From Candidatus Fraserbacteria bacterium (GTDB lineage: Bacteria; Bipolaricaulota; Bipolaricaulia; RBG-16-55-9), in contig JBBIOR010000010.1 of assembly GCA_037443265.1 (NCBI GenBank), positions 30,179 to 64,761 of the forward strand: DNA of 34,583 nt. Reading direction: 5' to 3'. Below the pieces are notes generated by a model. The model saw nothing but the letters and a program-made list of their open reading frames with translations. It was not told where the DNA came from and ran no database searches. The translations under genes and the position numbers were made by a program. Numbering within the stretch: the stretch's first letter is position 1; the number at the start of each line of letters is the position of its first letter. Positions 13,639 through 20,292 of this stretch are shown in pieces.

Positions 13639-14946
13639 CTAGGACCCCAAGACGCGCGCTACCCCCTCGCGCAGCTCCTCCGGAAAGCAGAGGCGCGCCC
13701 GCCTCACCCAACGATTCATGATCGCCCGAATCAGCTCCGAATGCTCCGAAAGCTCATAGAGCCTCAGAGCGCGATCCACCAGATAGATGTTCTCACCTAC
13801 CTCCCGCTTAGAGTCAGAACGCCGAAAGAGCCCGTCCACATAGGGATCGGCAATGGCCGTGTCCAGCACGAGATAATAGCGCGGATCAAAGCCAAAAGAT
13901 CGAGACAGCTTCTCAAGTCTCTCCTTAAGGCGCTCATAGCGCTTGGGCTCAATCTCCACCGTCTTGAAGATCCTGCGCTCGAGAAATCTCCGGCAGAGAT
14001 CCGACAAGATCTCATCGGGGCTTTCAGCCCACTCACGCAGGGCATACGCCAAGACAATATCATCGAGAGTAAGAAATTCTTCGGGCGTGAGCCTTTCAGG
14101 CTGAACGAGCAACGTGCGCAGCGGCCCGGTCACAAATATTCTTTCGTCGTTGACCAGAAGCTCTGCCGCTCTCTTTAGGATCTGAAGGATCATCACCCCG
14201 GCCGCGCGACTCGTCTTGTGATGATAGACCTGCTGATACATGTAATAACGGGCAAGCACGTAGCTCTCCACCGCTCGAAGGCCCTTGTCGAGATCCACGG
14301 CAATCTCCCAATCGCCCTCATGCTCCACGATCCTCAAGCTGTGAATGAGCCACTCCAGATCGAATCTCCCGTAGCCCACGCCCGTGTGATAACTGTCTCT
14401 TAAGAGATAATCCATACGATCCACATCGAGCTGGCTGGCAATCAGCTTGACGGCAAACGAGGGCTTGAAGACCCGCTCGATGATCTGACGGAGCTGGCGC
14501 GGGTAGGTCTTGTCAAACGCTTTGAGGGCCTGATGGGCTTCCCCCTTGGGATGAGTAAGCAGCCGCGCCGTCCAGGCCTCGTGAGATGTGCCCGTGAAAT
14601 TCTCTAACAGATGCGAGAGCGGGAAGTGCCCAATATCATGCAGGAGAGCCGCGCTCAAAAGAAGCTCGCGGTGCACCCGAAGATGCTTGATGAGCGCCCG
14701 GAAGCGGGAATCGCTCTTAAGCCCCTCCATTCGCTCGATGATCCGCTTCATCAAAAACGCCGCTCCCAGCGAGTGCGAGAAGCGATTGTGATCCGCACCG
14801 GGATAGACGACATAGCTTACGCCCATCAGCTTTATCGAACGCAGGCGCTGGACTTCGCGGGTCTCGACGAGATTGAGCACCAGTTGATCTCGCCCGCGGT
14901 CAAAGCCCAAGAGATTATGAATCGGATCGCGGAAGACTTTCTCCAT
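13639..14946 (-). CDS. HD-domain dNTP triphosphohydrolase-like protein (SAMHD1/YwfO-like)
   Basis: [43 protein letters not shown]. Start at MEKV (14946) with a GGAG SD; the ORF-track extension is antisense to icd. Confidence 0.9.
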
Positions 14947-14957
14947 AGCTCTCCAGC

Positions 14958-15012
14958 TTGCCCCTTCCCGCCCCAACTCAGTATGATCTACCCTGCATCC
15001 CCATGCAGGGTA
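14958..15012 (+). promoter_or_regulatory. icd promoter with an adjacent perfect inverted repeat
   Basis: TTGCCC(14958)-18 nt-TATGAT(14982-14987); TACCCTGCAT-cccc-ATGCAGGGTA at 14989-15012. Confidence 0.5.
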
Positions 15013-15045
15013 CAAGAGAGAAGGGTGGGAAGACCAACGCATCCT

Positions 15046-16289
<1,244 letters not shown>

Positions 16290-16290
<1 letters not shown>

Positions 16291-17210
16291 TGCGCTACAT
16301 AGAGCCCGCCCAGGCCGATCGTAATCTCTTCATCCTCGATACCCAAATGCTGGGTATGAGCCGCTACGGCTCTCTTTATATTTTGAGAGCCCCAAAGCCG
16401 GTGATCATCGAGACGGGTTTTTCGCACACGCTGGAGAAGACGCTCGCGGCCTTGGAAGAGCTTAAGATCCGCCCTGAGGACGTGGCGTATATTCTCCCCA
16501 CACACGTGCACCTGGACCATGCCGGCGGGACGGGGTTTCTGGCAGAAGCTTGCCCTAACGCGAAGCTCGTCTGCCATCATCTGGGAGCACCGCATCTCAT
16601 AGATCCAGCGAAGCTCATCCAGAGCGTGCAGCGGGCCGTAGGCGTGCTCTTCCCCTATTACGGGACGATGAAGCCCGTCCCCTCCGAGCGAATCATGGCT
16701 GTTCGGGGAGGAGAACGCTTCGATCTGGGCGGTGGCTACTCTCTCGAAGTCATCGACTCACCGGGTCACGCGCCGCATCACGCCTGTTTCTATGAGCACA
16801 GGACGAAGGGAATCTTCACAGGAGACGCCGTAGGCATCTATCGCCGGGAAGCGACGGGCCTTGTGATGACAACTCCTCCCCCCGCCTTCCATTATGAGGA
16901 CTGGCTTAAGACGCTCAGGCGCCTAAGAGCGCTTTCTCTTCGCTGGCTCTACTTTACTCATTACGGGGTGGAGGATCGACCCCGTGAGCTGATCGATGAA
17001 TTCGAGATGCTTCTCGGCCGCTGGGTGAAGGAGATCGAAGAGGCATGGCAAGAGCTGGGCGACGAGCAGGCCGTCAAAGAGCACTTCGTGGCCAGAGAAG
17101 CGCAGACGCTGGGGAAGTTCTACGAGCCGGCCATGCTGCGCCAGGAAGTAGGTATGAACGTCCAAGGCGTGCTGCTTTATTTTAAAAAGCGTCGCTTGGC
17201 CTCGTCATGA
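16290..17210 (+). CDS. Metallo-beta-lactamase-fold hydrolase
   Basis: THVHLDHAGG, PGHAPHH, FTGDA, THYG; TAATG coupling with icd. Confidence 0.92.
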
Positions 17211-17713
17211 GACCTACTGAGGCCATCACTGTCCGGGCCCTGGATGTGGAGGGCCGATTGAAATATTGCTGGCCGGCTGTGCTGCTCGCCGAGGAGGAGG
17301 GGCTAATCGTCCTCTGCGGCGACTGGGAGCGCCCGCTGCAATATCCTCACGGTGCCAGCGTGCCCATCACAAACCGCTCGCTCGAGTTCTACTGGCTCGA
17401 TCAGCCCTATGTGATCTCCGCGCTCTTCGATCGCGCGTGGCAACTCAAGGAATACTACGCGCGTGTGACCCTCCCTCCCCAATATGATAAAAGCTTCAAG
17501 AGGCTCTCGTTTGTCATGCTCGGCCTAGATCTCCAGATCAAGCCAGATTACGAGTACGACCTGCTGGAGTACCCGGACTCGGAGGACTCCCCTGCCCAAA
17601 TAGAGCGCCGGGACGGACTCATGGCGTTGATTGAGCTCATTGAAAGAAGAGAAGGTCCTTTCAATTTCGAGTTTTTAGGATCCTATCTGAAGCGAGCCTG
17701 TAGAGGGTCTTGA
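17207..17713 (+). CDS. DUF402-like protein
   Basis: SLEFYWLDQPY, EYYARVTLPP, LDLQIKPD, IERREGPF resemble DUF402; ATGA overlap with the upstream gene. Confidence 0.7.
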   Translation: MRPTEAITVRALDVEGRLKYCWPAVLLAEEEGLIVLCGDWERPLQYPHGASVPITNRSLEFYWLDQPYVISALFDRAWQLKEYYARVTLPPQYDKSFKRLSFVMLGLDLQIKPDYEYDLLEYPDSEDSPAQIERRDGLMALIELIERREGPFNFEFLGSYLKRACRGS

Positions 17714-17726
17714 GGCCCCCTCAAAC

Positions 17727-17759
17727 TTGACAAATTAGCAAAGAGTGTTGTATTGTCAA
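17727..17759 (+). promoter_or_regulatory. Sigma70-like promoter within a dyad (TTGACAA-N19-TTGTCAA)
   Basis: TTGACA(17727)-18 nt-TATTGT(17751-17756); no plus-strand CDS follows. Confidence 0.55.
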
Positions 17760-17761
17760 TT

Positions 17762-17916
17762 CTCCTTCCTAGGGCTCTCCCTAGGAAGTCGAGGAGCTTG
17801 GCCTGCGGCTTCGAACCGCGTCCTCGGACTGGGGAAGAATCTGCCCCTAGGGGCAGCAAAACCCTGGTAGCCTATGCCTCACCCCAAAAACCCTGCCCGT
17901 AAGGCCAAGCTCTTCG
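17762..17916 (+). ncRNA. Candidate structured non-coding RNA of unknown family
   Basis: 10-bp perfect hairpin at 17765-17788; 15-bp closing stem 17790-17804/17902-17916 with G-U pairs only on the + strand; internal hairpins; own promoter; lies between convergent genes. Confidence 0.55.
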
Positions 17917-17996
17917 TATTCATTGATATGGGATAAAATTGAAGACAACGCCGGGGATTTGTGAATGACCGATGCCCTTTTGAGAGAAGAGCTTGA

Positions 17997-19385
17997 TCAC
18001 TTCCCAAGGTGCGCGAAGCGGGCACGGAAGTGGCGCAGCGGTCCCTTGCCATACACGAGCTTCAAGCCCTGAATCCTCCCTCGGCGCTGGGCAATCGCTT
18101 TGAGCGCATCTACTACCACATCCAAATGCTCCTGGGTGTAGACCCGACGGGGGATTGCGAGTCTTACCAGTTCTAAGCGTGGGTAGATCACTTCGCCGGT
18201 GCGCTCGTCCGGGCGAGCAAACATGACACTGCCGATTTCCACAGCCCGGATGCCCGCCTCAAGATAGAGCTCGACGACCAGGGCCTGAGCGGGAAAGGCG
18301 CTCTGCGGGATGTGGGGCAGAAAGCGCTTGGCATCGATGTAGACGGCATGGCCTCCGATGGGCTCAAGGATCGGGATGCCCTCGGCCCTCAGGCGTTCTC
18401 CCAGATAGCGCACTTGAGTGATACGATCGTGCAGATATTGTTCATCCAGCGCCTCGCGCAGTCCTTGAGCGATCGCTTCCAGATCCCGTCCGGCCAGCCC
18501 CCCATAGGTCGGAAAGCCTTCCATCAGGATCAGGCGCTCGCAGGCTCGCTCATAGAGCTCCGCGTCGTTCAAAGCGAGAAATCCGCCGATGTTAACGATG
18601 GCGTCCTTCTTGGCACTCATCGTGCACCCATCGGCCCATGAGAAGACCTCGCGGACGATCTCGACGATGGATTTCTTGTCATAGCCCGGCTCGCGCTCTT
18701 TGATGAAATAGGCGTTTTCAGCGAAGCGGGCTGCATCCAAAAAGAAGGGGATTCCGTAGGAGCGGGCAAGACGGCTCACCTGGCGAATATTTTCTAATGA
18801 GACCGGTTGGCCGCCGCCGCTATTGTTCGTGATGGTCAGCATGACGAGCGGGACCCGCTCGACTCCCTTCTCCTCGATGAGGGCCTTGAGTCTTTCCACG
18901 TCCAGGTTGCCTTTGAAGGGATGCAGCCTTGTAGGATCGTAGGCTGCCTCGATGGCCAGATCAACAGGCTCGGCGCCGCCCTCGAGCACATGAGCCCGGG
19001 TGGTATCAAAGTGCATATTGTTGGGCACGAAGTCTCCAGGCTGCACAAGAGAGGAGAAGAGCACGTTCTCGGCGCCGCGGCCCTGATGGGTCGGCAACAC
19101 GTACTTAAAGCCTGTGATCTCGCGGACGGTCTCTGAAAATCTTTGAAAGCTCCGGCTGCCCGCGTACGCCTCATCGCCCACCATGAGCGCGGCCCACTGC
19201 TCCTGGCTCATGGCACCCGTGCCAGAGTCCGTCAAGAGATCAATATAGACGTCTTCGGAGGCCAGATGGAAGACGTTATAGCCAGCTTCTTCCAGCTTTC
19301 TGGCGCGCTCCTGCCGCGGCAGGAGCCGTATGGGTTCGACGACTTTGATCTTGTACGGCTTGTACCACGCAGAAGGAGAGCTCAT
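17997..19385 (-). CDS. tnaA: Tryptophanase (PLP beta-eliminating lyase)
   Basis: [37 protein letters not shown] (PLP Lys) and C-terminal LRHF. MSAKKD and LRHF favour tryptophanase over tyrosine phenol-lyase (MSGKKD/LRFF). Confidence 0.9.
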
Positions 19386-19392
19386 TCTGCGG

Positions 19393-20292
19393 TTACTCCT
19401 GGGCACGCGCCCCACGATCTTCGCTCATGAACGGCTTCAAAATATCTATGGGCACCGGGAAGACCACGGTGGTGGTCCGCTCGGAGGTGATATCGAGAAG
19501 CGTCTGCAGGAAGCGCAGCTGGATGGAGGCCGGCTGCTGCTGGAGGACCTGCGCCGCCTGAGCCAGCCTCTCGGCCGCTTGATATTCTCCCTCGGCGTTG
19601 ATGATCTTGGCGCGCCGCTCCCGCTCGGCCTCGGCCTGTCTGGCGATGGCCCGCTGCATCTCCTGCGGAATTCTTACATCCTTGATCTCGACGGTCTTGA
19701 CTTTGATACCCCATGGGTCCGTGTGCTCGTCGATGATCTCCTGCAGGCGTTTGTTGAGCTTCTCCCGCTCGGCCAGCAGCTCATCCAGCTCTACTTGGCC
19801 TAAGACGCTCCGCAGCGTCGTCTGAGAGATCTGATTGGTGGCCTGGAGGAAATCCTCCACTTCCACAATGGCCTTGTTGGGGTCCATCACGCGGAAGAAG
19901 ACCACCGCGTTCACTTGCACCGTGACGTTGTCCCGGGTGATGACCTCTTGGGGCGGGATGTCCAGCGTGATGACTCGCAGGCTCACCTTGACCATCTTAT
20001 CGACGATGGGGATCAGGAAGAAGAGCCCCGGACCCTTGGCTCCGATGAGTCGTCCCAACCGGAAGATGACTCCCCGCTCGTATTCGCGCACGATCCGAAT
20101 CGCGCTCGAGAGCAGCATGATCACCAGCACGAGGATCAGCGCAATGGTAAACGTATTCACAGCCGCACCTCCTTGGAAGAATTCCAATAGTGCCTTTCGA
20201 AACGGCTCCAGTTGCAGCAAAAAGACCACAACGGCCAGGAGAACTCCCACAAGGGCTGAGATGCCTTGCTCCCCGTCGGTTCGGCCGTTCAT
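19393..20292 (-). CDS. SPFH/band-7 (stomatin/slipin) membrane protein
   Basis: [47 protein letters not shown]. Start chosen at the ATG behind the GGAGGGG SD. Confidence 0.93.

Follow-up and report, generated by a model that had tools for sequence, protein, structure and literature searches.

The window considered here, that is, the whole stretch of 34,583 nucleotides taken from a Candidatus Fraserbacteria genome (Bipolaricaulota), contains an intergenic gap of 283 bp in which a stand-alone, promoter-driven, structured non-coding RNA is encoded on the + strand. The host genome, labelled G000, amounts to 1.7 Mb and is 88% complete. The flanking open reading frames (ORFs) converge and end at 17713 and 17997, in agreement with the gap length and the gene orientation given in a preliminary description made from the sequence alone. 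The features of the locus are listed below by position in the window, strand and nature.

17207..17713, + strand: upstream neighbour, a 168-aa DUF402/NtdP-like protein (weak match)
17727..17756, + strand: sigma-70-type promoter, with the -35 box TTGACA at 17727-17732, an 18-nt spacer, the -10 box TATTGT at 17751-17756 and TG before the -10 box
17763..17925, + strand: predicted transcript of about 160 nt, its start placed from the -10 box and its end from the U-rich run after P1
17765..17788, + strand: 5' hairpin P0, 10 bp with the loop CUCU (CTTCCTAGGG/ctct/CCCTAGGAAG), its 5' arm pyrimidine-rich and its 3' arm purine-rich
17790..17804, + strand: closing stem P1, 5' strand (GAGGAGCUUGGCC core)
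17804..17820, + strand: hairpin P2, a U.G closing pair and GCGG/CCGC around the 7-nt loop CUUCGAA
17815..17825, + strand: C-rich block AACCGCGUCCUC, partly in P2 and partly in the P2/P3 junction
17829..17867, + strand: P3 module, the hallmark of the family, CUGGGG (17829-34) with CCCUGG (17862-67), including tandem U.G/G.U pairs
17835..17840 and 17857..17861, + strand: A-rich internal loop of P3, AAGAAU facing CAAAA
17841..17856, + strand: P3b, a 16-nt palindrome
17886..17899, + strand: single-stranded C-rich block AAAAACCCUGCCCG between P4 and P1
17902..17916, + strand: closing stem P1, 3' strand (GGCCAAGCUCUUC)
17917..17926, + strand: U-rich run right after P1 (UAUUCAUUGA), a possible termination signal
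17997..19415, - strand: converging neighbour of the tryptophanase/tyrosine phenol-lyase family (Beta_elim_lyase), tnaA, 472 aa (strong match)

The promoter that had been read on the + strand is supported by two lines of evidence. In a pattern scan, 10 of 12 positions match, where chance would yield 0.3 ± 0.6 sites of this quality, and in six of six orthologues from the same family the -35 box TTGACA is invariant and the extended -10 element (TGnTAnnGT) is kept. The U-rich run behind P1 is also found in these six orthologues, as a clean U6-7 in both g5 genomes; a simple terminator scan called no clean intrinsic terminator on the + strand, and the run at 17917 was not called. The gap is a small RNA gene on the + strand with its own conserved promoter, from which the transcript listed above is predicted. 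The three sequencing runs listed for the locus, from one study that may be the source of the assembly, are all of DNA. Small ORFs of 41-58 aa overlap the gap, and a coding function was ruled out because orthologues differ by 1-nt indels within the P3b arms.

All the sequence elements listed in the preliminary description are present in the DNA: the perfect ctct hairpin at 17765-17788, the 15-bp long-range stem (17790-17804/17902-17916, with one G.U pair on the + strand), the inner elements GCGG-cttcgaa-CCGC and GTC-ctcg-GAC, the 16-nt palindrome at 17841-17856 and the twice-repeated AAAACCCTG, at 17858 and 17887. Its proposed TGGGG/CCCCA pairing has to be replaced, as the comparative data place CUGGGG (17829-34) opposite the first CCCUGG (17862-67), and the comparative fold departs in its inner part from the minimum free energy fold. 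The + strand has a minimum free energy of -77.0 kcal/mol, compared with -52.9 ± 3.9 for 200 dinucleotide shuffles (z = -6.2), none of which folds as well. Since the - strand reaches a comparable energy (-78.7, z = -4.1), folding energy alone cannot fix the strand. A hairpin of different sequence occupies the P0 position in orthologues, and a C-rich single strand of 22 nt precedes the closure of P1. A pseudoknot between the P3b loop and the P2-P3 junction was considered and rejected, being inconsistent across subfamilies.

When the element was compared by BLAST with 61 related genomes, 23 gave matches, which are full-length in the same family and limited to a core of 70-80 nt in the other families of the order. 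Sixteen BLAST-found relatives were aligned, and their structure, obtained from RNAalifold and inspection, was turned into a covariance model, R1. The window copy scores 108.7 bits against R1 (E = 1.2e-21), a value that is partly circular because this copy is among the 16 sequences from which the model was built. Covariation was assessed on 100 R1-aligned matches from 100 loci, L024 and L031 being left out; 90 of these members are distinct and fall into 41 sequence clusters. The alignment is one fitted to the model, and 80 of the loci were gathered with a pattern that requires six inner P3 pairs. Standard pairs occupy 90.3% of the cells, compared with 71.7% in shuffles and at most 52% when partners are slid, and compensatory cells number 469 as against 137 ± 10 in shuffles, a value reached by 0 of 500 shuffles. 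Among the 90 distinct members, changes on both sides affect 24 of the 33 pairs (5 of 500 shuffles attain this figure), namely 12 of 12 in P1, three of five in P2, four pairs of the outer part of P3 and five of six in P3b, while the six inner P3 pairs are invariant. The helices thus covary by comparison with both types of control, as expected from the structured RNA that had been proposed.

The strand is fixed by the agreement of three observations. The tandem U.G/G.U pairs of P3 are invariant, and a U.G pair closes P2 in 43 sequences; the R1 scores are markedly higher on the forward than on the reverse strand (93.2 vs 24.7, 71.1 vs 25.2 and 30.5 vs 10.1 bits); and the promoters lie on the + strand. 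The assignment to the + strand made in the first reading of this DNA can therefore be retained.

A BLAST search of the host genome with the 221-nt region returns the region itself at full length and two pieces of 27-33 nt on C8. R1 finds nine places in that genome, eight of them at E <= 1e-3, and the window RNA is therefore one paralogue, the tnaA-linked one, of an undescribed multi-copy structured RNA family. The family core, CUGGGG-AAAAAUCC-hairpin-GCAAAA-CCCUGG within a domain closed by P1, is found in the window copy, whose loop reads AAGAAU where the consensus is AAAAAU. An exact scan for the core pattern in one genome each of about 185,000 species identified 88 stretches. The 80 records listed of these 88 are all metagenome-assembled genomes (MAGs) that are named Bipolaricaulota, Acetothermia or Bipolaricaulia or that bear another label from their submitters (Fraserbacteria, 'uncultured Thermotogae', 'uncultured bacterium' and, in one case, Latescibacterota). 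A shorter version of the pattern matches 109 metagenome stretches. The full pattern has no match in viral contigs, and a viral origin was discarded on that ground.

Over 151 genomes of the phylum, R1 matched 37. In the order to which the host belongs, it matches all 32 genomes sampled (8/8 in family f1, 16/16 in f5, 4/4 in f3, 1/1 in f2 and 3/3 in f4), with one to six copies per genome under stricter filters. Two large sister families give 0/43 and 0/55 (0/98 together), and these zeros also serve as a specificity control for the model. In the genomes sampled, the family is confined to one order of Bipolaricaulota (OP1/Acetothermia), which are uncultivated bacteria of the subsurface and sediments.

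Several loci are conserved across genomes, including those linked to purH, to moaD or PNP and to hemL, and one located 5' of an E1 dehydrogenase gene. The gene families next to the paralogues share no theme, and the downstream genes of other paralogues, where present, have promoter-like boxes of their own. The preliminary description had regarded many dispersed copies as the mark of a repetitive extragenic palindromic (REP)-like or miniature inverted-repeat transposable element (MITE)-like repeat, which would have no RNA-level function of its own. Dispersed copies do exist, both the nine in G000 and those found throughout the order, and several hits are located no more than a few hundred bases from the end of a contig, but their nature makes such a repeat very improbable. 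The sole full-length BLAST match in the genome is the region itself, and the paralogues, far from being nearly identical, share 53-67% identity with each other (81% in one pair). The tnaA-, purH- and moaD-linked paralogues retain the same neighbouring gene across genomes, sequence changes are compensatory and strand-specific, promoters are conserved, and viral contigs contain no match. The flanks that were read contain no transposase, terminal inverted repeats or target duplications, no systematic search for these having been made. On the basis of their low identity, kept neighbours, compensatory changes and strand specificity, the copies look like old functional paralogues rather than a mobile repeat.

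Individual paralogues differ in size and setting. The purH-linked paralogue (G000 C9:8250-8480 and orthologues, e.g. L059, L069, L124) is larger than the others, and it harbors an extra upstream GC hairpin, a GGUUAGCAACC box, a downstream UGAGCGAUCAUC box, and GAAGGAGGUUGGCAGGAG in the P3b loop. The hemL-linked copy (G000 C1:107713-107870) starts 8 nt past the upstream stop codon, which leaves no room for a promoter of its own, and the next gene downstream possesses TTGATC/TATAGT boxes of its own; the RNA would be one borne by a 3' untranslated region (UTR). At G000 C3:13677-13996 (L137 1501-1820), a cyclic di-GMP (c-di-GMP)-I riboswitch on the + strand (85 bits), one of six in G000, is head-on to a family copy on the - strand, so that this copy lies antisense inside a riboswitch-controlled 5' UTR of about 450 nt. 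The same convergent layout is found in L083 and L058. Finally, a P1-like mini hairpin, CUUGGCUC...GAGCCAAG, followed directly by AAGGAGGUG at G000 C4:~67150-67240, may be a minimal relative missed by R1.

The family does not correspond to a known class of RNA. At gathering scores, no Rfam 15 model matches anywhere in the window, and none matches in the 30 loci of relatives that were scanned. With permissive filters, the interval 17600-18100 yields four chance-level hits (E 0.45-7.4), none of them to 6S, signal recognition particle (SRP) or Y RNA, and no Rfam ribozyme family is matched. The best sub-threshold match to a cis-regulatory model is to Thermales-rpoB (RF03109), with 14.8 bits for a gathering score of 77.3 (E = 2.2). 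The likeness lies in a hairpin followed by a AAnAACCCUGnUAGC-like run, and it was attributed to chance, as the score is far below gathering and 20 other family loci scanned have no such match. ARAGORN detects no tRNA or transfer-messenger RNA (tmRNA) gene in the window, and the RNase P RNA and the SRP RNA are located elsewhere in the genome, at C3:37049 and C13:43740, respectively; the earlier statement that the RNA lacks the signatures of these four classes is upheld. A full-text literature search combining Bipolaricaulota or Acetothermia with RNA-motif terms led to general work on RNA discovery, comparative-genomics surveys such as PMC2864571 included, in the accessible portions of which the names of the lineage are absent.

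Other candidates were set aside for reasons specific to each. A bacterial Y RNA of the YrlA type has no Rfam match, and the Ro/Rsr protein (TROVE, PF05731), whose gene is usually close to such an RNA, was not found in the 88%-complete genome. For a Csr/Rsm sponge RNA, CsrA (PF02599) was not found in that genome, and GGAGG is absent from both P3b and the tail of the window copy. Against a riboswitch or other cis leader stand the convergence of both neighbours on the RNA, from which the preliminary description had already argued against a 5'-UTR riboswitch, and the converging gene that six of the nine own-genome copies face; the RNA does have an invariant internal loop within covarying helices, for which neither a ligand nor a gene theme common to the copies is evident. 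Likenesses of single elements were also dismissed: the P3 loop strands look slightly like the P4 region of RNase P RNA, with a different pairing topology and with the real RNase P RNA elsewhere; for helix 24 of 16S rRNA, the pairing differs; P2 resembles a tRNA T-arm, with a loop register off by one nucleotide, a loop that varies to UCGC, UUGC or UUAC in g10, and nothing reported by ARAGORN; and a boxA-like GCUCUUUA 3' of P1 is present in g10 only.

A short, divergent 6S RNA had been put forward as the main known alternative. A genome-wide search with RF00013 found no 6S RNA in the 88%-complete genome, so that this role is formally unfilled, and the window RNA is similar in size (about 160 nt) and has a strong promoter and a long terminal stem, as 6S RNA does. 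However, RF00013 gives no match in 17600-18100 even at E <= 10; the comparative structure is a branched junction of P1, P2, P3/P3b and P4, whereas 6S RNA is a rod with a central bubble; and the presence of nine family copies per genome, versions of 63 nt included, is unlike 6S RNA. Failing as it does on covariance model, shape and copy number, a 6S identity is extremely improbable. The suggestion of a stand-alone structured RNA is sustained by its own promoter, by its position outside the 5' UTR of either neighbour, by the lack of any Rfam match and by the covarying helices.

The label tnaA is well supported, the converging protein scoring 705 bits to NF009709, while that of the upstream neighbour is weak, the match to DUF402 being sub-threshold (19.3 bits for a cut-off of 23.9). 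The tnaA places, found by a match in 32 of the 35 genomes of the order, were compared with those of the RNA. The two are convergent and 80-330 nt apart in 15 genomes (three of f1 and twelve of f5). The retention of this layout in two families is what suggests a cis element for tnaA or for the upstream operon, acting either as a sensor-controlled antisense RNA that extends into tnaA or as a module for 3'-end processing, stability or termination. The absence of a called clean intrinsic terminator on the + strand points the same way, as do the copies located directly after a stop codon (hemL-linked) or antisense within the 5' UTR controlled by the c-di-GMP riboswitch, and the frequency with which own-genome copies face a converging gene. 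On the other hand, the RNA is retained without tnaA in G006, where the DUF402-like gene, the RNA and Band7 are kept at the locus, and no RNA adjoins tnaA in G002, G003, G005, G007, G009 or G024, the six further loci examined with filters off. In the g5 orthologues, transcription would not proceed into tnaA because a U6-7 run immediately follows P1. In addition, the window copy has its own conserved promoter, and no common theme links the gene families adjoining the paralogues. A cis function of this kind is, all in all, unlikely.

Two observations concern the genes themselves. The tnaA matches at G008:C71:10975-12375 and G003:C29:15262-16653 contain one in-frame TAG each. Further upstream in the window, an ORF of 559 aa of the isocitrate/isopropylmalate dehydrogenase family (14611-16290, + strand) has a Pfam domain that starts only at residue 176; the protein has a long N-terminal extension, or else its start is mis-set.

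The tnaA-linked locus is common to six genomes of the same family, and their comparison indicates which parts of the RNA are most strongly retained. AACCGCGUCCU and AA..CCC.GC are invariant in all six orthologues, and the C-rich block AACCGCGUCCUC is nearly so. In the g5 orthologues, the 5' strand of P3 and P3b has been lost, and P1, P2 and the C-rich blocks are kept ('type C'). A further reduced form, the 63-nt type-B RNA, consists of P1 and the C-rich blocks with no P3, possesses a TTGACA promoter of its own and is present in five genomes of the family (G000, G001, G004, G005 and G006). In its consensus fold, a stem of 16 bp closes a loop of 30 nt, in which AACCGCGUCCUC sits in 5/5 cases and the 17-nt CCUCGAACCGCGUCCUC is invariant in 5/5. 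In G000, type-B RNA is encoded at C8:47069-47258 (- strand; L002 1346-1533) by two tandem units, with an N run between them and a U-run after the closing stem. The 10-mer ACCCUGCCCG, which is part of the block at 17886-17899, is seen again in type-B RNA, as well as in the C3 paralogue, where it lies in the tail.

Most of the other paralogues carry a distinct type of exposed sequence, namely AAGGAGGU, the complement of the 3' end of 16S rRNA, located with no ORF behind it in a loop or just 3' of the closing stem. The pentamer GGAGG is present in P3b in 20 of 41 clusters and at most 60 nt 3' of P1 in 25 of 41, against a genome background of 0.002 per nt and strand. In the tails, the consensus UAAGGAGGU(G/U) complements the 3' end of the organism's own 16S rRNA, GGAUCACCUCCUUUCU, and AAGGAGGU occupies 19 of 26 tail sites, with 90 copies of this 8-mer on both strands of the whole genome. 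Paralogues have one to three motifs, and the motif-bearing loops are 13-23 nt long. Among the 90 distinct members, 61 have the motif within 60 nt downstream, and in only six of these 61 is it followed, at 3-15 nt, by a start codon that opens at least 60 codons; four of the six cases belong to one cluster, in whose alignment indels break the frame downstream. G-rich motifs of this kind are absent from P3b and from the region after P1 in the window copy and its close orthologues.

These properties of the motif, that is, its match to the 16S 3' end, its frequency at tail sites, the scarcity of ORFs behind it and its placement in long loops, are consistent with a ribosome-directed decoy or stabiliser, in which a scaffold would bind the 30S subunit through its 16S 3'-end complements. 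Such binding would either sequester ribosomes or protect the RNA from decay, as the orphan Shine-Dalgarno sequence does in STAB-SD, and the window copy would then be a derived member that has lost the motif. A literature search on orphan Shine-Dalgarno stabilisers points to a review that mentions STAB-SD (PMC7509114) and to a paper on the icaR 3' UTR (PMC3868564). Against this explanation, the window RNA contains GGAGG neither in P3b nor in the region after P1, and the tail motif may be structural, because in some paralogues it can pair with a downstream CCUCC-type stretch. Moreover, a second recurrent form, the 11-mer AAGGAGGUUGG, which recurs among family members in loops, in tails and at 5' ends (G000 C3, C6 and C9), departs from 16S complementarity after 8 nt, and it suggests for that reason a recognition motif of its own. 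Taken as a whole, a decoy or stabiliser appears unlikely to account for the window RNA. A bolder version, improbable but worth stating, would make the family a ribosome-directed counterpart of 6S RNA. The P3 loop might dock on the platform of the 30S subunit and the AAGGAGGU loop and tail capture the anti-Shine-Dalgarno sequence of 16S rRNA, so that up to about ten paralogues would set the level of free small subunits; the C-rich window and type-B RNAs would then be antagonists, pairing with the mimics or with Shine-Dalgarno sites of mRNAs.

The role that is most likely, as judged from sequence comparisons, is that of a regulator acting in trans. According to this proposal, the invariant internal loop of P3, with its tandem U.G/G.U pairs and A-rich strands, would be where a partner common to the paralogues docks, which could be a protein or the ribosome, and the specificity of each paralogue would come from exposed segments that vary between copies. 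Such a segment is, in most paralogues, AAGGAGGU, a perfect mimic of the Shine-Dalgarno sequence; the C-rich segments of the window copy and of type-B RNA (AACCGCGUCCUC and AAAACCCUGCCCG) might pair with G-rich sequences of Shine-Dalgarno type, located either on mRNAs or on those paralogues that bear the mimic. The riboregulator is favored because the closing stem and the two C-rich blocks are all that persists in the full-length, type C and type-B forms, and because sibling paralogues display complementary G-rich, Shine-Dalgarno-like sequences. The P3 internal loop is invariant within covarying helices and resembles a site at which a common partner would bind, since it is kept across ancient paralogues whether P2 is present or not.

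A number of observations weigh against the trans-acting riboregulator. The invariance of the P3 core is in part an artefact of collection, as the collecting pattern required those pairs, and P3 is not essential for every orthologue, since those of g5 have lost its 5' strand. The first C-rich block may not be free in the window copy, where it is partly paired in P2, and P4 is weak in this copy. Searches for targets gave null results: the complement of ACCCUGCCCG has 12 matches in the genome, four of which are merely the antisense of family RNAs, with no enrichment at ribosome-binding sites, and complements of 9-12 nt to UUCGAACCGCGUCCUC occur at 71 places, a chance-like number that is again without such enrichment. 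The latter places include antisense strands of family RNAs and tRNA T-arms, and one coincides with a possible start site of a ribosomal protein gene. Lastly, CsrA, Hfq and Ro/TROVE were sought in the 88%-complete genome and not found. The mechanism is thus a hypothesis, roughly as probable as all its rivals combined, and the complete explanation, that of an independent small RNA gene of about 160 nt that belongs to this family and acts as a riboregulator in trans, falls just short of an even chance.

One RNA fold persists in a single bacterial order as many copies whose divergence is ancient, several of them beside the same gene, and this degree of maintenance across genomes implies an important role. 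The ORF-less complement of the 16S 3' end hints at a link with the ribosome or at a control of translation start sites; if such a link were true, it would represent RNA-based translation control of a kind that, to our knowledge, has not been described. Even with no function assigned to it, this family offers a clearly delimited target that covariation supports well.

Comparison with known systems yields partial likenesses. The CsrB, RsmY and RsmZ RNAs, which have strong promoters and exist as several paralogues in one genome, expose a number of GGA motifs in linkers and in the loops of hairpins; they are not known to possess a conserved scaffold comparable to P3. The paralogues of the present family resemble them by their GGA-containing motifs, copy number and strong promoters, but the motif they carry is the complete AAGGAGGU, present once to three times in an RNA and missing from the window copy, and no CsrA was found in the 88%-complete genome. 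STAB-SD is an orphan Shine-Dalgarno sequence that stabilises Bacillus mRNAs and is located near the mRNA 5' end. Family paralogues likewise have a strong Shine-Dalgarno sequence that no start codon follows, and which in their case is located in a loop or 3' of a structured non-coding domain and is absent from the window copy.

With respect to the proposed mode of action, a parallel might be RsaE/RoxS of Firmicutes, small Hfq-independent, promoter-driven riboregulators whose unpaired C-rich blocks are able to pair with Shine-Dalgarno regions. The window RNA is likewise promoter-driven and has conserved C-rich blocks, and type-B RNA has two CCUC motifs in its large loop. The two differ in that no sequence or Rfam match links them, that the blocks of the window RNA are embedded in a multi-helix junction, that target searches were null and that sibling RNAs are G-rich. 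With respect to phylogenetic range and architecture, the family can be compared with orphan lineage-specific structured RNA motifs, which are found in one lineage, often in several copies and in mixed contexts, and in which covarying helices surround invariant loop nucleotides. It differs from them in that no Rfam 15 model matches it, and we know of no recurrent ORF-less AAGGAGGU element in such motifs; it is like them in its restriction to one lineage, its multi-copy state, its covarying helices and its mixed contexts.

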